The notes below the pieces were generated by a model. That model ran no database searches. It had not been told where the DNA came from and saw nothing but the letters and a program-made list of their open reading frames with translations. A stretch of DNA of 64,000 nt, taken from Candidatus Multivoradales bacterium (GTDB lineage Bacteria; Acidobacteriota; Thermoanaerobaculia; Multivoradales; JAHEKO01). The DNA lies in the NCBI GenBank assembly GCA_965223155.1, contig CBDCVR010000013.1, positions 256,001-320,000 of the forward strand, written 5' to 3'. Made by a program: the position numbers and the translations under genes. Shown piece by piece: positions 41,640 to 52,576 of the stretch (position 1 is the stretch's first letter; every line of letters begins with the position of its first letter).

Positions 41640-41949
41640 AAAGCGCCCAGTTTCCGCCCGGTTTACTAGGTATTATCGAGCCGATGGCCCGAGTAGTTCG
41701 AAGCGCAGCGGCTGGACGGGCCGAAGAGTCACGGTGCGCGTTGACCACCTGACCGTTGTTCGCGCTGCCACTCCGTCGTCTACCCGCAGCGGCATAGCAG
41801 CCAGACACGTGAGCCAAGAACCCGCAGATGACGAAACCCCACGAGAGGTAGGTGCCAGATGAGATGAGTCGGTCGGTCTCCAGCTGGGACACTGTGCCAG
41901 TTGGAGATAACCAAGGAATCGGCATCAGAGCCGAGAAAGGAGACCGACC

Positions 41950-42963
41950 ATGGAGTATGTTGGCATTGATGTTCACTCGAAGTACAGCGAGGTTTGCGGG
42001 ATATCGGAAGAGGGGGAAGTGACGCTTCGCCGGCGGATTCCGACTACGGAGACAGCCTTGCGCCGGTTCTTCGGTTGTCGTGAGCAGTCGCAGGTGACGC
42101 TCGAAAGCGGCCCGGTGACTCCTTGGGTGTACCGGTTGCTGTGTGAGCTGGGACACGAGGTGACGGTAGTCAACCCGCGGCGGGTGCGGCTGATCGCGGA
42201 GTCGACATTGAAGACCGACGGAATCGACGCCGAGGTGTTGGCTCGATTGAGCCGGTTGGATCTCGACCTCCTGCGTCCCGTGTACCAGCGTACGCGTGAG
42301 GCCCAGGAGCTTCGGGCCAGGCTTCGCGTACGTACGAGCCTGGTCAAAGCCAGGACATCGTTGATCAACGCGGTGCGTGGAACGTTGCGAGCTCAAGGGT
42401 ACCGAGTGCCATCGTGCCCGGCCAAGAGCTTCGTCGTGCGCTACGCATCGATGGGTCTCGACAGTTCTCTTGCGGAAACGATCGATCCTCTGGTGACGAC
42501 GATCGGCGAGTTGACGGATCGGATCAACCGGCTCGAGAAGGAGCTCGTAGCCGAGTCGAGCTCAAACGAGCTGTTGGTGCGGCTTCAGACGGTCCCTGGG
42601 GTGGGCCCCTTGGTGAGCTTGGCCTTCCTGGGTTGGATGGATCGCCCGGATCGGTTCAGAAAGAGTCGAGACGTGGGTGCGTGTTTGGGCTTGAGACCGT
42701 CGCTTCGAAGCTCAGGAGGACACGAGATCCGAGGCCGGATCACACGGGAGGGCGACGCCGAGATGCGAAGGCTTCTGGTTCAAGCGGCTCATGCGGCGTT
42801 GAACTGTCGCAAAGAGTCGTCGCTCAAGAACTGGGCTGAGAGCTTGGTCGAGAGGCTCGGCAAGGGCAAGGCCGTCGTGGCCCTAGCGAGGAAGATCGCA
42901 GTGTTGCTCCATCGGCTATGGGTAACGGGCGATACTTTCCGGGCGTTCCCCCAGGCGGTGTAG
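41950..42963 (+). CDS. IS110-family DEDD transposase/recombinase
   Basis: GIDVHS, LESG, KTDGIDA (DEDD), VPGVG, GLRP...SSGG Ser motif, ALARK. Confidence 0.96.
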   Translation: MEYVGIDVHSKYSEVCGISEEGEVTLRRRIPTTETALRRFFGCREQSQVTLESGPVTPWVYRLLCELGHEVTVVNPRRVRLIAESTLKTDGIDAEVLARLSRLDLDLLRPVYQRTREAQELRARLRVRTSLVKARTSLINAVRGTLRAQGYRVPSCPAKSFVVRYASMGLDSSLAETIDPLVTTIGELTDRINRLEKELVAESSSNELLVRLQTVPGVGPLVSLAFLGWMDRPDRFRKSRDVGACLGLRPSLRSSGGHEIRGRITREGDAEMRRLLVQAAHAALNCRKESSLKNWAESLVERLGKGKAVVALARKIAVLLHRLWVTGDTFRAFPQAV

Positions 42964-43009
42964 AGCCTAGAGAACATCAGGTCGCACCAGAAAGGAAGGA
43001 CGGATTGAA

Positions 43010-43148
43010 AGTTTCGATGACTCCGAGAAAAGGGTTGGAGGCCAGGACTCCGCGTGCCAGATGGGAGCATCGAATCCTCAACGGACGAAAAACTCACCAT
43101 GCACCGGTCCAAGAAAGGACCCGCCAGAGTGCGAATAGAAGCTCGTCC
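43010..43148 (+). ncRNA. predicted bridge/seek RNA of IS variant 1
   Basis: Two stem-internal loop-hairpin units; guides GAAAAGGGTT (43027-36), GTGCCAG (43054-60), ATAGAAG (43135-41); boundaries approximate. Confidence 0.75.
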
Positions 43149-43286
43149 TGAGGCTCCATCCGAGACCCGAAACACATGGGGAGACGATGACAGACACCTT
43201 GACCGAAACGACCGACTCATAGAAGCCTTTCCGCGAAAGCTAGTCAGTAGTTGACGTTTTCGAAAAGGGTGGTGCCTATTCTTGGG

Positions 43287-43326
43287 GGCACAGTGTCCCA
43301 GCTGGAGACCGACCGACCCATCTCAT
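43287..43326 (-). mobile_element. truncated left end of another IS110 copy
   Basis: 40 nt with 1 mismatch to the IS left end; outer flank TAGGTTCCAG resembles the variant 1 target. Confidence 0.85.
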
Positions 43327-43685: not shown

Positions 43686-45056
43686 GAGTTATCGTCAAAT
43701 GTTGTGTACGGGTGACTCAGGCGGCGATCCGGTTCTTGGGTTCTCCATCAACGAATTTGACACCTCGGACAACGTCGGCGATTCGCTTGTAGCCCTGTAG
43801 CCGCCGCCATCGTTTCTCGGCACTCTGGCTCAGCTTGAAGACCATCGAGAGCATGGTCTCGCGGGAGAGACAACCACGGGTCTTGGCCGTTCGAAGGCGT
43901 ACGGTGGCAAAGGTCGACTCGATCGGGTTCGTGGTCCTGAGATGGACCCAATGCTCGGCCGGGAAATCGTAGAAGGTCAGCAGGACCTTGCGATCCTTGG
44001 CCAGGCAACGCGTCGCCTTCGGGTACTTGGCCCCGTAGGTCGACAGGAAGGCATCGAAGGCTCGCTCGGCAGCCTCGCGCGTTTCGGCCATCCAGACCTG
44101 GTGCAGCGCCTGCTTGGCCTTTGGCTGGACGGCCTTGGGCATCTTGTTCAAGACGTTGCCGGTCTTGTGGACCCAGCAACGCTGGGTCTTGGTGTTGCTC
44201 CAGACCTGAGCCAGGGCCTTCCAGAAGCCCAGAGCGCCGTCACCGGTCGCCAGCTTCGGCTCGATGGCAAGCCCTCGCGCTTCGAGTCCACGCAAGAGCT
44301 CGAGCCAGGAAGCCTCGCTCTCGCGGTAGCCGTCTTCGACGGCGATGAGCTCCTTGGTGCCGTCCTCGGTGGCGCCAATCAGTACCAGCAGGCACAGCTT
44401 CGCGTCGTCCAGACGAGCCTTGGTATGGATCCCATCCGCCCACACGTAGACGTAGCGCTTGGAGGACAAGTCCCGGGTGCGCCAGTCGGTGTACTCCTTG
44501 GCCCAGACTTTCTTCAGACGGCTGATCGTCGCGGCTGACAACCCCGGGGCGTCGGGGCCTACCAGAGCTTCCAGGGCATCGGAGAAATCTCCGGTGGAGA
44601 TGCCGCGCAGATAGAGCCACGGCAGCAGCTCCTCGACGCTCTTGGCCCGTCTGAGATACGGAGGCGCGATCTTCGAGCGAAAGACCAACTCACCTTCACG
44701 ATCCCGAACCCGAGGCACCTTCACCGGCACACCTCCGATTCCCGTCTGGATCTCACGCTCGCGCAGGTAGCCGTTGCGAACCATGCGGCGCCGGCCATCT
44801 TCCGTTTGCTCGCCTCGGTACTCGGCCAGGAAGCTCTCGACCTCGGCTTCGATCGCTTCGCGAAGCAACTCGCGTGAGCCGCGGCGAAGCACTTCGGTCA
44901 AGGCATCTCTCGAACTCTCTGATCGGTCAATCGAAACTACGTTACTCTTGCTCAAGGCGTATCCTCCTTCTTTGAGGGTTTGAATCCGATTTGGAAAACC
45001 GGACTCAGGATACGCCGCCTTCATCTCAACTCATACACAACTTTCGACCATAGCTC
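43686..45056 (-). mobile_element. IS256-family element
   Basis: 28-bp imperfect terminal IRs (22/28), 9-bp TSD TCGGACAGT (43677-85, 45057-65). Confidence 0.95.
43717..44955 (-). CDS. IS256-family transposase
   Basis: RNGY, VPRVRDR, YVWADG, GDGALGF, QRCWVHK, RTTNPIES; TTG start with GGAGG RBS. Confidence 0.95.
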   Translation of the reverse strand: MSKSNVVSIDRSESSRDALTEVLRRGSRELLREAIEAEVESFLAEYRGEQTEDGRRRMVRNGYLREREIQTGIGGVPVKVPRVRDREGELVFRSKIAPPYLRRAKSVEELLPWLYLRGISTGDFSDALEALVGPDAPGLSAATISRLKKVWAKEYTDWRTRDLSSKRYVYVWADGIHTKARLDDAKLCLLVLIGATEDGTKELIAVEDGYRESEASWLELLRGLEARGLAIEPKLATGDGALGFWKALAQVWSNTKTQRCWVHKTGNVLNKMPKAVQPKAKQALHQVWMAETREAAERAFDAFLSTYGAKYPKATRCLAKDRKVLLTFYDFPAEHWVHLRTTNPIESTFATVRLRTAKTRGCLSRETMLSMVFKLSQSAEKRWRRLQGYKRIADVVRGVKFVDGEPKNRIAA

Positions 45057-45088: not shown

Positions 45089-45169
45089 AATTCGGTGACA
45101 GGATACATATTTCGAGTGTCCCTCTGCGGCCGGATTCTTCCCTTGAAATTGGTATCCTGTCACCGAATT
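45089..45169. repeat. palindromic repeat family A, copy 1 (intact, 81 bp)
   Basis: Perfect 18-bp IR AATTCGGTGACAGGATAC / GTATCCTGTCACCGAATT around a conserved 45-bp spacer. Confidence 0.92.
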
Positions 45170-45179
45170 TCCCCCCAGC

Positions 45180-45529: not shown

Positions 45530-46249
45530 TCAGTCCGCGCAGTTGTTGTACCGGAGCGTGTTCGCCTTCCACTCGTCGCGAGCGCTGCACCCGGCAACGT
45601 ACTCCTCAAGAAGGACGCGACACCGCGCTGGCGAGGGCGCGTGAAGGCCTGCCAACGTTGCGATCTCCCCGATCATCTCGTCCTGCGAATGGACCCAGTC
45701 AACTGCTAGAACGTCGGCTTTGGTCTCGACGTCAACGGCTGCTGGCAGGTCGGACCGGAGCGATGAATCGACAACCAAGAGAGCTCCGCGCGGGCGCTTT
45801 TGGCTGAGCTTGTAGGAGTTGATCAACGCACTGCCCATAACCGGGAAGATCGTCATCAGGCCTTCGCCCATCCTGATCACACCATCCGTCGACTTCGCCA
45901 TGACCGAATCGGGGTAGCAGCCCTGTACATCCGCGAAGCCACCCGTCGACAGAGCTGCTCTCGCAACGCCTCCACCGGCGAGAACGTGCCGAAGTACGCC
46001 GATCGCAACGGCGACGGGTTTCCCCAGCGCCTGTTCGCCAAAGCTCGGAACGACTACGAAGCCATCGCCAAGCTGGTGGGCAAACAGGCGATGCGGCTCC
46101 TCCGCGAGGCACATCGCGCCAATGCGGTGAATCGCCTCCATTAGTCGACCAAGGCGCACTAGAGCCTCAGCCTGGTGCATGGCGTACGTATCAGAGAACC
46201 CCTCGAGATCGAGATAGAGGGACCACTTGTCTTCGCCAGTCCGCCACAT
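45530..46249 (-). CDS. divergent class III nucleotide cyclase-like protein
   Basis: LYLDLEGFS, QLGDGFVVV, RAALSTG, VMGSALINSYKL; ATG 46249 (the longer ORF runs into the IS). Confidence 0.6.
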   Translation of the reverse strand: MWRTGEDKWSLYLDLEGFSDTYAMHQAEALVRLGRLMEAIHRIGAMCLAEEPHRLFAHQLGDGFVVVPSFGEQALGKPVAVAIGVLRHVLAGGGVARAALSTGGFADVQGCYPDSVMAKSTDGVIRMGEGLMTIFPVMGSALINSYKLSQKRPRGALLVVDSSLRSDLPAAVDVETKADVLAVDWVHSQDEMIGEIATLAGLHAPSPARCRVLLEEYVAGCSARDEWKANTLRYNNCAD

Positions 46250-46373
46250 TGAGGTCAACGGTTGCTGTGGAATTCGGTGACAGATGAGATGAGTCGGTCG
46301 GTCTCCAGCTGGGACACTGTGCCAGTTGGAGATAACCAAGAATCGGCATCAGAGCCGAGAAAGGAGACCGACC

Positions 46374-47387
46374 ATGGAGTATCTTGGCATCGATGTTCAC
46401 TCGAAGTACAGCGAGGTGTGTGGCGTATCAGAAGACGGTGAGGTGACGGTTCGCCGGCGGGTTCCGACGACCGAGACGGGCCTGCGAAGGTTCTTCGCCA
46501 ATCGGGAACGCTCGCAGGTGACGCTCGAGAGCGGTCCGGTCACACCCTGGGTCTATCGACTGCTGTCTGAGCTCGGCCATGAGGTGATGGTGGTCAATCC
46601 ACGCCGGGTACGTCTGATCGCGGAATCGACCCTGAAGACGGACGGAATCGACGCCGAGATCCTGGCTCGTTTGAGCCGGTTGGATCTGGGTTTGCTTCGA
46701 CCAGTCTACCAGCGCACAGGTGAGGCCCAAGAGCTTCGGACGCGTCTTCGGGTCCGAACGAGTCTGGTGAAGACCAGGACCTCGCTGATCAACTCCGTAC
46801 GCGGAACGCTGCGGGCACAGGGCTACCGAGTGCCCTCATGTCCGGCGAAGAGCTTCGTGGCTCGGTACGCGTCGATGTCGGTCGAAGCCGGCCTGTTGGG
46901 AGCGCTCGAACCTCTGGTAACGACAATCGGCGAGCTGACCGATCGGATCCACCATCTCGAAGACGACCTCATCTCCGAGTCGAGATCAAACGAGCTGGTC
47001 CGTCGGCTGCAGACGGTTCCTGGTGTGGGGCCTCTGGTGAGCCTTGCGTTCGTCGGCTGGATGGATCGTCCGGATCGGTTCGAGAAAAGCCGCGACGTCG
47101 GAGCGTGTCTGGGCTTGAGACCGTCGCTTCGCAGCTCAGGAGGGCATGAGGTCAGGGGCCGGATCACTCGCGAGGGCGACTCGGAGATGCGCAGACTCTT
47201 GGTGCAGGCAGCTCATGCGGCGTTGAACTGTCGCAAAGAGTCGTCACTCAAGAGATGGGCTGAGGGCCTGGTCGAGAGGCTGGGTAAGGGCAAGGCCGTG
47301 GTCGCGCTAGCTAGGAAGATCGCGGTGTTGCTCCACAGGCTGTGGGTGACAGGTGAGAGCTTCCGAGCCTTTCCCAAGGCAGCGTAG
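46374..47387 (+). CDS. IS110-family DEDD transposase/recombinase
   Basis: Same motifs as variant 1; about 86% aa identity by manual count; AGGAG RBS. Confidence 0.96.
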   Translation: MEYLGIDVHSKYSEVCGVSEDGEVTVRRRVPTTETGLRRFFANRERSQVTLESGPVTPWVYRLLSELGHEVMVVNPRRVRLIAESTLKTDGIDAEILARLSRLDLGLLRPVYQRTGEAQELRTRLRVRTSLVKTRTSLINSVRGTLRAQGYRVPSCPAKSFVARYASMSVEAGLLGALEPLVTTIGELTDRIHHLEDDLISESRSNELVRRLQTVPGVGPLVSLAFVGWMDRPDRFEKSRDVGACLGLRPSLRSSGGHEVRGRITREGDSEMRRLLVQAAHAALNCRKESSLKRWAEGLVERLGKGKAVVALARKIAVLLHRLWVTGESFRAFPKAA

Positions 47388-47429
47388 AAGAGATAACTAG
47401 ACGACCAACAAGCAAGGACGGATTGAGAG

Positions 47430-47566
47430 GTTCGATGACTCCGAAAGTATCCTTGGTGGCCCCGACACCGTGTGACAGATGGGAGCATCGATTCCTAAAC
47501 GGACGCAAAACTCACCATGCACCGGTTCAAAGAAGAACCCTACAGAGTGCGAATAGAAGCTCGTCC
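47430..47566 (+). ncRNA. predicted bridge/seek RNA of IS variant 2
   Basis: Guides GTATCCT (47447-53), GTGACAG (47472-78), ATAGAAG (47553-59); compensatory stem changes vs variant 1. Confidence 0.8.
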
Positions 47567-47665
47567 CAAGCCTCGATCCAAACCTAAGGAAAACTACAAA
47601 AAGAAGAAACGAAACTCTTGACGCCAACCGACCGACTCATAGAAGGATACATATTTCCTGACGGT

Positions 47666-47746
47666 TCCGGTGACAGGATACATATTTCGAGGGTCCCTCT
47701 GCGGCCGGATTCTTCCCTTGAAATAGGTATCCTGTCACCGGATTTC
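47666..47746. repeat. palindromic repeat family A, copy 2 (preceded by an extra IS-occupied arm)
   Basis: 16-bp IR TCCGGTGACAGGATAC / GTATCCTGTCACCGGA, same spacer as copy 1. Confidence 0.92.
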
Positions 47747-47771
47747 CAGTGGAATTCCGGCTCGGCTCGCG

Positions 47772-49064
47772 TCACCTGATACCGGGGATTCGTACCGCGG
47801 GGATGATCTCGTCGAGCAGGATCTGCTCCGGCATCCAGAAAAAGTCCGGGTCGTTGTACCCGCCGCACAGGATCACGACGAGGAGGTCGAGTGCGGGAAT
47901 GACGTAGATGCGCTGGCCACCATTCCCGGCGGCGGTATGGACCTCCAGCTCGGCGGAGTCCGTGCCGTAAAGATCGTGCCACCAGAGGTATCCGTAGCCG
48001 AATTCGCCGATCTCTTTCTCGCGTCCGGTCACGGCAAGACGCCGCCGCGTCGATTCGCTCACCCAGGATTCGGTCAGGATCTGCTCGCCGTTCCAGCGCC
48101 CGCCGCTGAGATACAGCGAGCCGAACTTTGCGAAGTCTCGCGCTGTCATCCAGACGTTTCCGCCGGGGTCCGAGTTTGTCGCCCAGGGCCGATCGCTCTC
48201 CCACGCGAGCTCGGGCACGGAGTCCCAGTTCGAATAGCTGGCCCATTCGACGTCTCGTATTCCCAGCGGTTCAAAGAGCAGTTCTCGGGCGTAGGCGCCG
48301 AAGGCCTTGTTCGTAGCACGTGCCACCGCGATACCCAGCATCGCGGGCAACCCGGAGTTGTAGTACCACTGCGTACCGGGAGTCGAGGCCATCGAGCGGC
48401 TGAACACGTAGGCTGCCGGGTCGTCGTGCGCAGTCGTTCGCTCTGCGTCGTTCGAAGGGTCGGTGTACGGCACCTCGAACTCGTTCCAGCGGAGCCCGGC
48501 ACTCATCATCAACGCGTGGCGGACGGTGATTGCACGTTTCTCCGGCGTAGCCAGCGAATCTAGTTCCGGGAAGTAGTCGAGCAGCGGGGTGTCGAGCGAC
48601 GGGATCGCTTGGCGATCGAGCGCGATTCCAACGACTGCCGAAGTGATGCTCTTCCCCACGGAGCGCGAGTCGTGCAGCGTGGTCCGGTCGAACTCGACGG
48701 TCACGGTCTCAAAACGCTCTCCATTCCAGCGCTTGTCTTCTCCCGTGAAATACGATTCGTACACGAGTTGGCCGCTCTTGGCGATCAGCACCGCATGGAC
48801 GTTCGGGTACCGCTCGCCCTGGCGCAGCGCTGCGGTCATGGAGTCGAGGCGTGAAACGTCGAGTCCCGCGTCGGACGCGGCACCAACGCCCCATCCATCG
48901 TCGGTCCTGGCAGGCGTCCAGGCGGCCTCGGGCGACGCCGCGGTCGGAGTGGGTGCCGAATTCTCGGTCGTTCCACAGCCCTGGGATGCCAGCAGACAGA
49001 GTGCAACCGCAGTTACCGTCCAGTGTCGGGGTGTCACCGTCGCAAGACGTCTTGCAGCTCTCAT
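47772..49064 (-). CDS. serine hydrolase, beta-lactamase/AmpC-like family lipoprotein
   Basis: Lipobox SQGC, SVGK (SxxK), YYNS, YGYLWW, AAGNGGQ. Confidence 0.9.
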   Translation of the reverse strand: MRAARRLATVTPRHWTVTAVALCLLASQGCGTTENSAPTPTAASPEAAWTPARTDDGWGVGAASDAGLDVSRLDSMTAALRQGERYPNVHAVLIAKSGQLVYESYFTGEDKRWNGERFETVTVEFDRTTLHDSRSVGKSITSAVVGIALDRQAIPSLDTPLLDYFPELDSLATPEKRAITVRHALMMSAGLRWNEFEVPYTDPSNDAERTTAHDDPAAYVFSRSMASTPGTQWYYNSGLPAMLGIAVARATNKAFGAYARELLFEPLGIRDVEWASYSNWDSVPELAWESDRPWATNSDPGGNVWMTARDFAKFGSLYLSGGRWNGEQILTESWVSESTRRRLAVTGREKEIGEFGYGYLWWHDLYGTDSAELEVHTAAGNGGQRIYVIPALDLLVVILCGGYNDPDFFWMPEQILLDEIIPAVRIPGIR

Positions 49065-49144
49065 GGTGCCGGTACTCTAGTCCCAGGAGCCAGTATTCCC
49101 AAGGAGAATCTGCGTGTCCTTGACCCTCGGAAGTCGACCATCTG

Positions 49145-49363
49145 AGAGTCAAACCTCGGACGCGGCGATCTCTTGGCGACAGAACAACGGAGAATGTCCT
49201 GGTCTTCGACTTCGACGGCGGCACGAATCTGGAGAACGCCGACCACTACTTCGGCGCAGCCAAGCTCACTCTGGACGGCGACCACCTCACCAGCGCCTGG
49301 ACCGCCTATGCGGGCAGCGAGAAAGCCGCCGGTATGACCTTTCACCTGGCGCGATCCGAGTAG
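49145..49363 (+). pseudogene. 5'-truncated gene remnant
   Basis: Frame with coding-like codon usage (ENVLVFDFDGGTNLENADHYF...DHLTSAWTAY...TFHLARSE*) and no start codon; 5' limit approximate. Confidence 0.5.
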
Positions 49364-49393
49364 TCCAGGTCGCCAACTCTTCAAGAGAGCAGC

Positions 49394-49429
49394 TAGTCAG
49401 GACGGCGAGATTCGAACTCGCGACCCCCT
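49394..49429 (-). pseudogene. degenerate tRNA-Pro 3' half (att-like), inverted relative to tRNA-Pro
   Basis: 33/36 identity to the reverse complement of 41521-41556; CCA changed to CTA. Confidence 0.85.
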
Positions 49430-49474
49430 ATGCCCGAAGCCGGAGACCGCTAAAACACCCTTCTCCAGCAGCTC

Positions 49475-50221
49475 CTAGTTGTACAACAGGTAGACCAGTG
49501 CCTGGCCGAGCGGAATCGTCGGCAACACGAGAGCTGCCACCAAGATGAAGATCATCAAGAGTGGTGCGCCCCATCGCACTACCCCGTGCACTCGTCCCAG
49601 CGTCCACCGATCGTAGAACATGACTATTCCCAGGAGTAAAGCCAGTCCACCGAGGCCATAGGCGGCCTCACTGAGCATCGGCGAAGGGCTGATTTGTAGC
49701 GACGGGGACCGACCGATACGCGCAAGCGCCTGGCCCATCATCGCAAGAGATGCGAGCATCATGAGCCTCATGTGAGCCTCACGATTGCGACGGTGCCAAA
49801 CGCCCAACGCGACAAAAGACGCGAAAGCGATTACGAGTATCAGGTTGCCCCACAAGAACTGGCTCGCCCGCTCGACGCTGCCACCGGATTCGCGAAACTC
49901 AAGAACACCGCGGTAGAGAATCGAGAGTCCTGAGAGGACCATCAAGCCGGCGAGAACGGCCCCCAGCCCGCCGAGGCGGCGGTGGAACCGACGTTGGCCC
50001 GCTTGAACTAGAACGCTCTGGACGATAAGCAGAACGAACCACGAGGTGAAGAGGACGCCGTGGAGCTTCGTTCGTAGCGGCAACTCAGGGCTGTTGAACG
50101 CGCCGCGCAGAAAGTACGTGGGCGCAAAGCCGATGATGTTGAGGGCTAGGAGCAGAACGGCGAACCAGAGGACGAACCGCTGAGCGGCCCCGTTGGGCAA
50201 ACTTCCCTGGGTGCTTGGCAT
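49475..50221 (-). CDS. polytopic membrane protein
   Basis: ATG 50221 with GGAGGA RBS; GFAPTYF, HG..F..W, HRRLG, HMRLM His pattern. Confidence 0.85.
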   Translation of the reverse strand: MPSTQGSLPNGAAQRFVLWFAVLLLALNIIGFAPTYFLRGAFNSPELPLRTKLHGVLFTSWFVLLIVQSVLVQAGQRRFHRRLGGLGAVLAGLMVLSGLSILYRGVLEFRESGGSVERASQFLWGNLILVIAFASFVALGVWHRRNREAHMRLMMLASLAMMGQALARIGRSPSLQISPSPMLSEAAYGLGGLALLLGIVMFYDRWTLGRVHGVVRWGAPLLMIFILVAALVLPTIPLGQALVYLLYN

Positions 50222-50387
50222 GACTCCTCCTGGTTTTGTCCGCCGGCCATCGTATCCCAGCGCACCCCCAGCCCCCTCCGAGATTCCTACCCTGGGTGAA
50301 TTCGGTGACAGGATACGTGAATTCGGTGACAGGATACATATTTCGAGTGTCCCCCTGCGGCCGGATTCTTCCCTTGAAATAGGTATC

Positions 50388-51750
50388 CTTCTATGAGTCG
50401 GTCGGTTGGCGTCAAGAGTTTCGTTTCTTCTTTTTGTAGTTTTCCTTAGGTTTTGGATCGAGGCTTGGGACGAGCTTCTATTCGCACTCTGTAGGGTTCT
50501 TCTTTGAACCGGTGCATGGTGAGTTTTGCGTCCGTTTAGGAATCGATGCTCCCATCTGTCACACGGTGTCGGGGCCACCAAGGATACTTTCGGAGTCATC
50601 GAACCTCTCAATCCGTCCTTGCTTGTTGGTCGTCTAGTTATCTCTTCTACGCTGCCTTGGGAAAGGCTCGGAAGCTCTCACCTGTCACCCACAGCCTGTG
50701 GAGCAACACCGCGATCTTCCTAGCTAGCGCGACCACGGCCTTGCCCTTACCCAGCCTCTCGACCAGGCCCTCAGCCCATCTCTTGAGTGACGACTCTTTG
50801 CGACAGTTCAACGCCGCATGAGCTGCCTGCACCAAGAGTCTGCGCATCTCCGAGTCGCCCTCGCGAGTGATCCGGCCCCTGACCTCATGCCCTCCTGAGC
50901 TGCGAAGCGACGGTCTCAAGCCCAGACACGCTCCGACGTCGCGGCTTTTCTCGAACCGATCCGGACGATCCATCCAGCCGACGAACGCAAGGCTCACCAG
51001 AGGCCCCACACCAGGAACCGTCTGCAGCCGACGGACCAGCTCGTTTGATCTCGACTCGGAGATGAGGTCGTCTTCGAGATGGTGGATCCGATCGGTCAGC
51101 TCGCCGATTGTCGTTACCAGAGGTTCGAGCGCTCCCAACAGGCCGGCTTCGACCGACATCGACGCGTACCGAGCCACGAAGCTCTTCGCCGGACATGAGG
51201 GCACTCGGTAGCCCTGTGCCCGCAGCGTTCCGCGTACGGAGTTGATCAGCGAGGTCCTGGTCTTCACCAGACTCGTTCGGACCCGAAGACGCGTCCGAAG
51301 CTCTTGGGCCTCACCTGTGCGCTGGTAGACTGGTCGAAGCAAACCCAGATCCAACCGGCTCAAACGAGCCAGGATCTCGGCGTCGATTCCGTCCGTCTTC
51401 AGGGTCGATTCCGCGATCAGACGTACCCGGCGTGGATTGACCACCATCACCTCATGGCCGAGCTCAGACAGCAGTCGATAGACCCAGGGTGTGACCGGAC
51501 CGCTCTCGAGCGTCACCTGCGAGCGTTCCCGATTGGCGAAGAACCTTCGCAGGCCCGTCTCGGTCGTCGGAACCCGCCGGCGAACCGTCACCTCACCGTC
51601 TTCTGATACGCCACACACCTCGCTGTACTTCGAGTGAACATCGATGCCAAGATACTCCATGGTCGGTCTCCTTTCTCGGCTCTGATGCCGATTCTTGGTT
51701 ATCTCCAACTGGCACAGTGTCCCAGCTGGAGACCGACCGACTCATCTCAT
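50388..51750 (-). mobile_element. IS110-family (IS1111 group) element, variant 2, copy b
   Basis: Near-identical reverse complement of 46284-47645 (one extra base in an A run); same target on the opposite strand. Confidence 0.95.
50647..51660 (-). CDS. IS110-family DEDD transposase/recombinase
   Basis: Protein identical to 46374-47387. Confidence 0.96.
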   Translation of the reverse strand: MEYLGIDVHSKYSEVCGVSEDGEVTVRRRVPTTETGLRRFFANRERSQVTLESGPVTPWVYRLLSELGHEVMVVNPRRVRLIAESTLKTDGIDAEILARLSRLDLGLLRPVYQRTGEAQELRTRLRVRTSLVKTRTSLINSVRGTLRAQGYRVPSCPAKSFVARYASMSVEAGLLGALEPLVTTIGELTDRIHHLEDDLISESRSNELVRRLQTVPGVGPLVSLAFVGWMDRPDRFEKSRDVGACLGLRPSLRSSGGHEVRGRITREGDSEMRRLLVQAAHAALNCRKESSLKRWAEGLVERLGKGKAVVALARKIAVLLHRLWVTGESFRAFPKAA

Positions 51751-51763
51751 CTGTCACCGGATT

Positions 51764-52576
51764 TCACGGCGGGCCTGAGTGACCCGCATCCGCGAGGTCG
51801 CGGGCCAGCAGCCGACGGACCTCGCCGGGCAGCCGGCCCTGGCCCAGGTCGTGGCAGAGCTCATGGGTCATCTCCAGGCTGCTGAAGAGAGCCTGGCACC
51901 GGATGCAAAGCTCCGAGTCGGGAACCGGGAAGGCCACGCCCCGATCGAGCGCTTCTTGCTTGCCGCGCAAGAGATCCAGGCAGACCGCGCGCGGATGGTC
52001 CGGCGGCGGAGCCGGTTGCCGGGGCAGCAGGGGATCCAGGACCTCGCGGAGTTGGAGCCGGGCGCGCCGCACCCGGGTCTTGAGCGTGGCTTCCTTGAGG
52101 CCCAGCACCTCCGCCACCTCATGGACGGACAGCTCGGCGATGTCCTTGAGGACCAAGGGCAGGCGGTATTCGAGGGGCAACTCGGTAAGCGCGCCGCTGA
52201 GCCGTTCTTCGGCTTCGTGGGCGATCGTGGCCCGGAGCGGATCGTCTCGTGCCAGAGCCGCGGCGACGTCGTCGCCGGACGGCAGCAGCTCTTCCAGCGA
52301 ACGAACGTGCGCCGGCTCGCCGGAGCGCCGGCGGTGCCGGCGGCGGCAGGCTCGAACCGCGATGGTGTAGAGCCAGCTCGTGGGCGCCGAGCGGCCCTGG
52401 AACTGGTCCCATTTCCGGTAGGCGTTCAGAAACGTCTCCTGGAGGAGATCGTACGCCTCGTCCTCGCTGCCGCAGACTCGGAGACCTAATCGGTAGAGCT
52501 TGGCTCCGTAGCGATCCAGAAGCAGCGGGATGGCGTGATCTGCGTCCAGTCCGACCAGCTCGTCGTGTGCCGCCAC
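51764..52576 (-). CDS. ECF sigma factor with Cys-rich C-terminal extension
   Basis: DLLQETFL, SWLYTIA, EVAEVLG...KTRVRRAR; tail C..LL...CIRC...C. Confidence 0.88.
   Translation of the reverse strand: MAAHDELVGLDADHAIPLLLDRYGAKLYRLGLRVCGSEDEAYDLLQETFLNAYRKWDQFQGRSAPTSWLYTIAVRACRRRHRRRSGEPAHVRSLEELLPSGDDVAAALARDDPLRATIAHEAEERLSGALTELPLEYRLPLVLKDIAELSVHEVAEVLGLKEATLKTRVRRARLQLREVLDPLLPRQPAPPPDHPRAVCLDLLRGKQEALDRGVAFPVPDSELCIRCQALFSSLEMTHELCHDLGQGRLPGEVRRLLARDLADAGHSGPP

Follow-up and report, generated by a model that had tools for sequence, protein, structure and literature searches.

We analyzed a mobile element in a stretch of 64,000 nt (hereafter, the window) from Candidatus Multivoradales bacterium, a member of the Acidobacteriota (contig CBDCVR010000013.1 of assembly GCA_965223155.1, positions 256,001 to 320,000; all positions below are those of the window unless a contig is named). 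The element at 46284-47645 is very probably an intact, recently active insertion sequence (IS) of the IS1111 group, IS110 family, whose DEDD/serine recombinase works with a two-loop RNA of about 160 nt encoded downstream of its gene. A preliminary description had proposed an RNA-guided IS1111-type element with a 3′ RNA as the target guide; every sequence feature named there was found at its position, and the interpretation is supported by our sequence analysis, which would extend it to two loops. The term RNA-programmable, used in that description, is meant here in the sense suggested by sequence comparison.

In the proposed mechanism, the 337-aa DEDD/serine recombinase would act with an RNA (seekRNA or bridge RNA) encoded directly downstream of its gene. 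Within the target loop of this RNA, GUAUCCU would pair with the top strand of the core and right flank, and GUGACAG with the bottom strand of the left flank and core; owing to this pairing with both strands, the element would be inserted in one orientation, between GGTGAC-AG and GATAC, at a site that recurs in the arms of a family of palindromes resembling repetitive extragenic palindromes (REP-like). Within the donor loop, AUAGAAG would mirror the right end and core, while CUCAC-C would pair with the core G and left-end positions 2-5; once the element is excised as a circle, its joined ends would be held by this loop. Production of the RNA and its binding by the protein, the chemistry of strand exchange, and a circular intermediate carrying a junction promoter would follow the published mechanism of the family.

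Anatomy of the element, its copies and its transposase

The main parts of the element and its flanks are as follows.

46276-46283, + strand: left target flank GGTGAC with the core AG (46282-46283), together GGTGACAG, ahead of 14/14 full copies
46284-47645, + strand: element copy 1, one of 14 full genomic copies
46284-46302, + strand: left end, a 5-nt extension ATGAG (46284-46288) followed by the 14-bp subterminal inverted repeat ATGAGTCGGTCGGT (46289-46302)
46374-47387, + strand: transposase gene P0001, 337 aa, ATG at 46374, stop at 47385-47387, assigned with Pfam and NCBIfam
47627-47645, + strand: right end, inverted repeat ACCGACCGACTCAT (47627-47640), then AGA, then the core AG (47644-47645)
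47646-47657, + strand: right target flank GATACATATTTC, opening with GATAC (47646-47650)

With the core AG counted once, at the right end, the element is 1362 bp long and has subterminal inverted repeats of 14 bp, a DEDD transposase gene, and, 3′ of this gene, a long non-coding end. Since the core AG stands at both junctions, the limits of the element are equally 46284-47645 or 46282-47643. The preliminary description had placed it at 46271-47657; the element does lie there, but this interval includes approximately 13 bp of flank on either side. The inverted repeats are 100% complementary and inset by 5 nt on the left and by 3 nt plus the core on the right, in agreement with the IS1111 group, where inverted repeats of 7-17 bp are set in from the ends. 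The non-coding sequence is 90 bp long upstream of the ATG and 258 bp long downstream of the stop codon; a longer non-coding region downstream of the transposase gene is likewise characteristic of the group. The same layout of the ends, in which the core adjoins each flank and the inverted repeat is separated from it by 5 nt on the left and by 3 nt on the right, was found in 40 related elements. According to the flank sequences, excision of the element rejoins GGTGAC-AG-GATAC (GGTGACAGGATAC), as had been proposed.

A copy search in the window's own genome (4.0 Mb, 15 contigs) revealed 14 full-length copies with 99.9-100% identity, two copies of a paralogue (81-82% identical), and a 40-nt left-end remnant; one further copy of the element, on contig 7, was split by an unrelated IS256-family element. 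All 14 full copies had GGTGACAG on the left, while the right flank was GATAC in 13 of them and GATGC in one; only the dinucleotide AG stood at both junctions. All 14 were, therefore, inserted at one specific site, in one orientation, and with no long target duplication, as expected for the IS1111 group. The uninterrupted 13-mer GGTGACAGGATAC occurred 17 times in the genome (0.08 occurrences expected from base composition).

Residues 4-147 of the transposase belong to PF01548 (DEDD transposase, RuvC-like; E 8.5e-25) and residues 210-289 to PF02371 (E 4.5e-21); the protein also scored 241 bits against NCBIfam NF033542, "IS110 family RNA-guided transposase" (cut-off 140). In the alignment with 21 homologues (58-87% identity), E52, D90, D93, and S255 were invariant and D7 and G256 nearly so; L246, G247, and P250 were also invariant, and the motif GLRPSLRSSG holds S255-G256. 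Thus, the protein combines the N-terminal DEDD domain with the C-terminal PF02371 domain carrying the GL-P----S(t)G motif, in the wording used for the IS1111 group (PMC11187229). Homology to the solved IS621 and ISCro4 transposases was distant (E about 1e-10; 6e-10 for IS621): the ISCro4 alignment spans GIDV, and the IS621 alignment, from residue 47 on, spans the E, TDxxDA, and S-G positions. The catalytic residues of IS621 are D11, E60, D102, D105, and S241 (PMC11208158). The protein had been called compact; its 337 aa are, in fact, an ordinary size for the group, for which Siddiquee et al. state 330-350 aa (PMC11187229).

The IS256-family element that interrupts the contig-7 copy is flanked there by an 8-bp duplication, CGTCACTC. 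Five copies of this element were present in the genome: one in the window at 43686-45056, encoding a 435-aa Mutator-type transposase (PF00872, E 1.8e-65), and four others at C7:11411-12782, C14:571680-573051, C11:5664-7035, and C15:374671-376045 (C, contig).

Predicted downstream RNA and its two loops

The 3′ non-coding end contains the following predicted features.

47420-47579, + strand: predicted non-coding bridge/seek RNA of about 160 nt, from fold and covariance model; outer stem GGATTGAG (47420-47427) / CTCGATCC (47572-47579)
47432-47491, + strand: target-binding loop (unit 1); basal stem 47432-47442 / 47482-47491, cap hairpin 47455-47469
47447-47453, + strand: 5′ strand of the target loop, GUAUCCU, complementary to the top strand of core and right flank (AGGATAC)
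47472-47478, + strand: 3′ strand of the target loop, GUGACAG, equal to left flank and core, complementary to the bottom strand
47501-47566, + strand: putative donor-binding loop (unit 2), from the fold; basal stem GGACG (47501-47505) / CGTCC (47562-47566); 5′ strand CAAAACUCACCAU (47506-47518), cap 47519-47550, 3′ strand GAAUAGAAGCU (47551-47561)

Folded in isolation, the 164 nt at 47418-47581 gave -51.3 kcal/mol (z = -2.62), a value equalled by 2 of 200 shuffles. The fold is an outer stem around two units of like design, each built from a stem at its base, an internal loop, and a hairpin as its cap. In unit 1, TCGATG-a-CTCC (47432-47442) pairs with GGAGCATCGA (47482-47491), with compensatory changes in 6 of 8 pairs, and the cap is formed by GGTG (47455-47458) and CACC (47466-47469). 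The two loop strands are those already named in the preliminary description, GTATCCT and GTGACAG in DNA letters, and their match to the flanks recurs in all 14 full copies; they address opposite strands of the target and overlap at AG, as do the guides of seekRNAs and bridge RNAs.

A scan of 46000-48000 against Rfam 15 (E up to 1) did not reveal any bridge-RNA family. Two sub-threshold chance matches were discarded: MIR1883 on the REP palindrome (27.8 bits, gathering score 128) and sR28 (14.9, gathering score 39).

Relatives of the element were collected in two ways. The homologue search covered 5.8 billion proteins and yielded 2801 matches at E <= 1e-30 among 8000 candidates scored. A scan of one genome per prokaryotic species, with the alignment of 21 homologues as the query, yielded 78 distinct loci with protein identities from 85% down to 31%, mostly in metagenome-assembled genomes of Acidobacteriota / Thermoanaerobaculia. 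The regions 3′ of the gene in related loci share a common scaffold. From a plain MAFFT alignment of 30 homologues, RNAalifold recovered two stems, the basal one of unit 1 and the capping one of unit 2, with compensatory changes in 6 of 13 pairs.

A covariance model (R1; 144 positions, 22 pairs, structure written by hand) was then scanned against the window and 56 of 97 loci, one for each group of near-identical copies. It matched at 3 places in the window, among them 47425-47570 in copy 1 (124 bits), and in 50 of the 56 loci, with E values from 6e-34 to 5e-10. All matches lay directly 3′ of the transposase gene on the same strand, and 18 of them were outside the seed; R1 had no match in six loci (L084, L085, L088, L091, L094, and L095), mostly partial gene matches. 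In the window's own genome, R1 matched at 17 places, all of them inside the 15 element copies and two paralogue copies; hence, there is no free-standing gene for this RNA in the genome. Among 47 distinct rows, standard pairs occupied 95.3% of cells versus 76.9% in shuffles (reached by 0 of 500), and only 30-56% when partners were slid by 1-3 columns as a control. Both sides had changed in 17 of 22 pairs, with 194 double-change cells versus 58.9 in shuffles. The predicted structured RNA of the long non-coding end is, therefore, conserved among the relatives, as in known seekRNAs and bridge RNAs.

The preliminary description had suggested folding and aligning the 3′ ends of homologous elements and looking for covariation between loop bases and flanks. 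For this comparison, element ends were located independently of the loops, by the inverted repeat starting ATGA, in 40 of 53 RNA matches; after L042 and L056 were dropped (flank off contig), 38 sites in 31 guide families remained. Loops were taken from the alignment columns of the covariance model, and cognate and control comparisons were given equal small register freedom. On the right, the reverse complement of the 5′ strand agreed with the first 9 bases from the core at 7.52/9 positions in cognate and 4.30 in non-cognate pairs; on the left, the 3′ strand agreed with the last 8 bases of flank and core at 6.69/8 and 4.30, respectively, and neither cognate value was reached in 20000 permutations. 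Leaving out the core gave 5.61/7 versus 3.22 on the right and 4.76/6 versus 3.01 on the left. An earlier regex-based extraction (17 families) gave the same result, with L024-L029 and L089 mis-parsed owing to a cap sequence resembling the stem motif. Guide-flank matches of 9-10 bases were found even in the distant relatives L064, L067, and L083. Guide bases thus covary with the target across relatives, another property of seekRNAs and bridge RNAs.

The right junctions of L042-L050 and L082, which represent copies of a single related element in one Thermoanaerobaculaceae metagenome-assembled genome, differ from each other: CATAGA is followed by TG, G, AG, or nothing before GTATC/GTACC. Variable targets, imprecise joining, or an assembly error could account for this variety.

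The guide had also been called fully readable. This holds for the target loop as described; the second internal loop (47501-47566), which matches the element's own ends, was missed. Its AUAGAAG (47553-47559) is identical to the right-end ATAGA plus the core AG, and CUCAC-C (47511-47516) is complementary to the core G and left-end positions 2-5 (left end ATGAG). In 28 distinct combinations, the 3′ strand equalled the last five right-end bases in 26-28 of 28 cases per position, and it read AUGGA in all 3 cases with an ATGGA end. Complementarity of the 5′ strand to left-end positions 2-5 averaged 3.39/4, a value reached by 0 of 20000 permutations; covariation was evident at position 3 (G:C 20, T:A 3, A:T 4) and position 4 (A:T 9, G:C 15). 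By its sequence, unit 2 looks like a donor-binding loop for the two ends as they would stand joined in an excised circle; a second loop matching the donor ends is expected of a bridge RNA. As this loop matches the element ends, the RNA would be of the two-loop bridge type.

The AUG following the left-hand guide was considered as a handshake guide and rejected: it equals the first three bases of the left end, but the third base does not covary in relatives. The handshake guides of IS621 likewise equal such end bases (PMC11208158).

Several points weigh against the two-loop, RNA-guided reading, besides the sequence shared among target sites that is considered in the next section. The alignment behind the structure counts was fitted to R1 and so leans towards the structure, which makes the RNAalifold result from the MAFFT-only alignment the independent check. 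Recognisable ends were absent from 13 of the 53 RNA matches, which thus lie outside the covariation set, and matches to the right flank were poor in L021 (5/9) and in L022, L023, and L033 (6/9). A simple scan of 46200-47750 detected neither a promoter nor a terminator on the plus strand within the element. Only the cropped 164-nt RNA folds better than shuffles; the entire 3′ end (261 nt) does not (z = -1.13). In the donor loop, only 5 of 7 positions of the 5′ strand pair, the first core base and left-end position 1 being mismatched. Finally, the 82-nt short seekRNA of ISEc11, carrying target matches only, supported transposition better than the long form (PMC11187229), and, since the short form was sufficient, a donor loop may not be required.

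The fold of the entire 3′ end speaks for an explanation in which the two 7-mers of the target loop match by chance or were captured from the target, with no functional RNA. Of 200000 mononucleotide shuffles of the 258-nt non-coding end, only 14 contained both 7-mers, a count that ignores their placement on opposite sides of the loop; moreover, the stems covary, and the guides covary with the flanks in relatives with quite different targets. We find a coincidence of this kind barely credible.

The imperfect 5′ strand of the donor loop bears on another explanation, namely a seekRNA that reads the target only: loop 1 would guide, loop 2 would be a scaffold or a processing remnant, and the protein would recognise the ends through the inverted repeats. 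Only 11 of 28 combinations show complementarity at left-end position 1, the ISEc11 result points the same way, and recognition of the ends is left open by Siddiquee et al. in the available text (PMC11187229). Such an RNA would leave unexplained that the strands of loop 2 track the varying ends (AUGGA with ATGGA, positions 3 and 4), to a degree no permutation reached, and that loop 2 repeats the stem, internal loop, and cap layout of loop 1; donor-complementary loops have also been reported in IS1111 elements (PMC11208160). We consider the target-only explanation unlikely, though worth keeping in view, and prefer the two-loop RNA.

The sequence upstream of the right end may be relevant to the circle junction.

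47618-47623, + strand: TTGACG, a -35-like box pointing outward from the right end

Among 37 distinct related ends, TTGAC lay at 27-28 nt from the right end in 32 and at 22 nt in 4; it was absent from one. Were the ends joined, GAAGAT would span the joint (its last two bases come from the left end), with TTGACG 18 nt upstream of it; the match is weak, 8/12. This arrangement is consistent with a promoter completed only once the ends join. Junction promoters have been reported for the IS110 family (2026 review, PMC13604230), for ISEc11, judging by the title of a reference, and, as a hybrid junction promoter, for ISPpu10 (PMC12288879). Contigs of four runs of one study (kind unrecorded), compared over 45600-48400, cover the element and run into varied flanks; no joints, empty-site form, or circle junction were found in these contigs, which cannot show rare forms.

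Target repeats and the paralogous element

Empty sites of the element are arms of REP-like palindromes of about 80 bp. These and the other insertions in the window are listed below.

47668-47747: intact REP-like palindrome (family D1) with two unoccupied sites, 47669-47681 (+) and 47728-47740 (-)
45093-45172 and 50324-50403: sister REP-like palindromes, the latter occupied by copy 2
50388-51750, - strand: element copy 2 (1363 bp), with an additional A in the right-end spacer; RNA at 50464-50609
41859-43225, + strand: paralogous element, 81-82% nucleotide identity, inserted in GGTGCCAG|...AGCCTTTCC; RNA at 43007-43152

One empty 13-mer (47669-47681) is located 24 bp to the right of the element. 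Copy 2 had been described as using the same site on the opposite strand; indeed, it is 99.9% identical with one extra base, has the same flanks inverted, and sits in the other arm of the REP-like palindrome. It appears on the opposite strand because each palindrome offers the site once per strand.

Between the inverted copies 1 and 2 lie 2.7 kb (47646-50387) with one unassigned open reading frame and, at 47772-49064 on the - strand, a gene placed by Pfam in the beta-lactamase / serine-hydrolase family (PF00144, E 3.9e-37); a gene for an ECF-type sigma factor (51764-52576) lies beyond the segment. From this arrangement, inversion or joint movement of the 2.7-kb segment could be possible.

Altogether, 29 distinct occupied or empty sites (e.g., 47656-47692) share GAAAT.CGGTGACAG|GATAC.TATYYC, far past the 12 bases that the guide matches, with mutually complementary GAAAT / ATTTC in the outer parts. 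Several solitary sites form short hairpins over the insertion point, such as CAGGAT-ACTC-ATCCTG. The repeat itself, or a contact by protein or structure, may, therefore, contribute to the choice of site beyond the reach of the guide. In the strongest form of this explanation, the REP-like repeat itself, through its outside sequence or hairpin, would mainly set the site, and RNA pairing would be secondary or one of two required matches. It draws on the extended consensus with its complementary outer parts, on a target-encoded stem-loop that adds specificity for ISPpu10 (bioRxiv 10.64898/2026.03.19.712850), and on the genome itself, in which no exact guide-matching site was found outside this repeat family, so that the contributions of guide and repeat are inseparable from these data. 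On the other side, loop bases predict unrelated flanks across 31 guide families in many genomes, and the paralogue, with a protein 86% identical to the element's transposase, uses a different repeat that matches its own loop bases. Site choice mainly by the repeat is, in our estimation, distinctly unlikely, and guidance by the RNA is preferred.

The paralogue is present in a second copy at C15:372322-373687. It has the same stems and the same unit 2, with the target-loop strands AAAGGGU / GUGCCAG. Its flanks are GGTGCCAG / AGCCTTTCC and, in the other copy, GGTTCCAG / ACCCTTTTCG (right, A(G/C)CCTTT). Both cap hairpins differ from those of the element by compensatory changes (GGUG/CACC to GGAG/CUCC; GGUUC/GAACC to GGUCC/GGACC). 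With different loop bases and a correspondingly different target, the paralogue is, as judged from these sequences, a case of natural retargeting within one genome. A second palindromic repeat carries this target in its arms.

A solitary 40-nt left-end fragment (43287-43326, - strand; 97.5% identical), flanked by GGTTCCAG, lies inverted 60 bp past the right end of the paralogue. It is probably the remnant of an earlier insertion or deletion.

Three empty sites of the paralogue were found (C4:9446, C14:185512, and C15:1099732); two of them read GG(T/G)(T/G)CC-AC-CCTTT and one reads AG at the core. The right-hand guide of the paralogue reads AC (ACCCTTT), and the left-hand guide and donor loop read AG; on the left side, occupied sites carry AG, and on the right either AG or AC, a pattern shared by L023 and L025. 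These few cases point to a crossover core that need not be identical in donor and target in this Acidobacteriota clade. That view, combined with a palindromic repeat that would gate the choice of target as well (a two-key logic), is speculative and more doubtful than probable by a wide measure. If true, it would mean recombination across a mismatched core with a fixed outcome per junction, or a one-base crossover.

Comparison with known systems

RNA-guided recombinases of the IS110 family are under development as genome-writing tools. To our knowledge, nearly all mechanistic work concerns the IS110 group (IS621, ISCro4). The 14 near-identical copies described here represent an IS1111-group system that was apparently active recently and in which both loops are legible. 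The retargeted sister in the same genome, together with the family-wide covariance model and its 31 guide-target pairs, provides a set for studying how target and donor are read in the IS1111 group, and the sites occupied show that such elements spread through repeat families in Acidobacteriota. What is new is the clade and host and the natural pair of retargeted elements; the known mechanism is unchanged.

The closest published systems are the seekRNA elements. For four IS1111 elements (ISEc11, ISPa11, ISKpn4, and ISPst6), the RNA that arises from the non-coding region downstream measures 82-96 nt, or approximately 150-170 nt in its long forms; this seekRNA is essential and is recovered together with the transposase on purification (Siddiquee et al. 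2024, PMC11187229). In common with them, the element has subterminal inverted repeats, a long non-coding region downstream of the gene, and a transposase of approximately 340 aa that combines DEDD and PF02371 domains. It also shares the order of strands: in IS1111 seekRNAs, the match to the top strand lies 5′ of that to the bottom strand, and the two overlap in the target (PMC11187229). ISEc11 and ISXne4 form a natural retargeting pair with a conserved stem (PMC11187229), comparable with the element and its paralogue. In contrast, the host lineage here is Acidobacteriota / Thermoanaerobaculia, the target is another one, and the system is known from its sequence; the end-matching loop is explicit here, whereas no donor-binding part is assigned in the available text of PMC11187229.

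The bridge RNA of IS621 (PMC11208160, PMC11208158, PDB 8wt6) resembles the predicted RNA in that one recombinase acts with an RNA containing target- and donor-binding internal loops, the two strands of each loop reading opposite DNA strands at a 2-nt core. The DEDD and Ser residues and natural targets of the REP type are also common to both. IS621 differs in belonging to the IS110 group, in carrying its RNA in the left end upstream of the gene, and in the reversed order of the strand matches; its inverted repeats are only 2-3 bp and its core is CT (14 bp and AG here), and the protein similarity is remote. Durrant et al. (2024) predicted a bridge RNA in the right end of 93.0% of the IS1111 elements of ISfinder and found loops complementary to target and donor in the IS1111 elements inspected (PMC11208160). 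The element fits this prediction, and its presence in their set or in ISfinder is possible.

ISPpu9 and ISPpu10 of Pseudomonas putida likewise occur as multiple identical copies at one position of repetitive extragenic palindromes (PMC12288879, bioRxiv 10.64898/2026.03.19.712850). The downstream small RNA of ISPpu9, Ssr9, is reported as not required and as moving as its own module; here, all 17 RNA copies are inside elements, with no orphan copy. Since all features found fit the published descriptions of seekRNAs and bridge RNAs, the element of Candidatus Multivoradales represents a clean further example of a mechanism already published in 2024.

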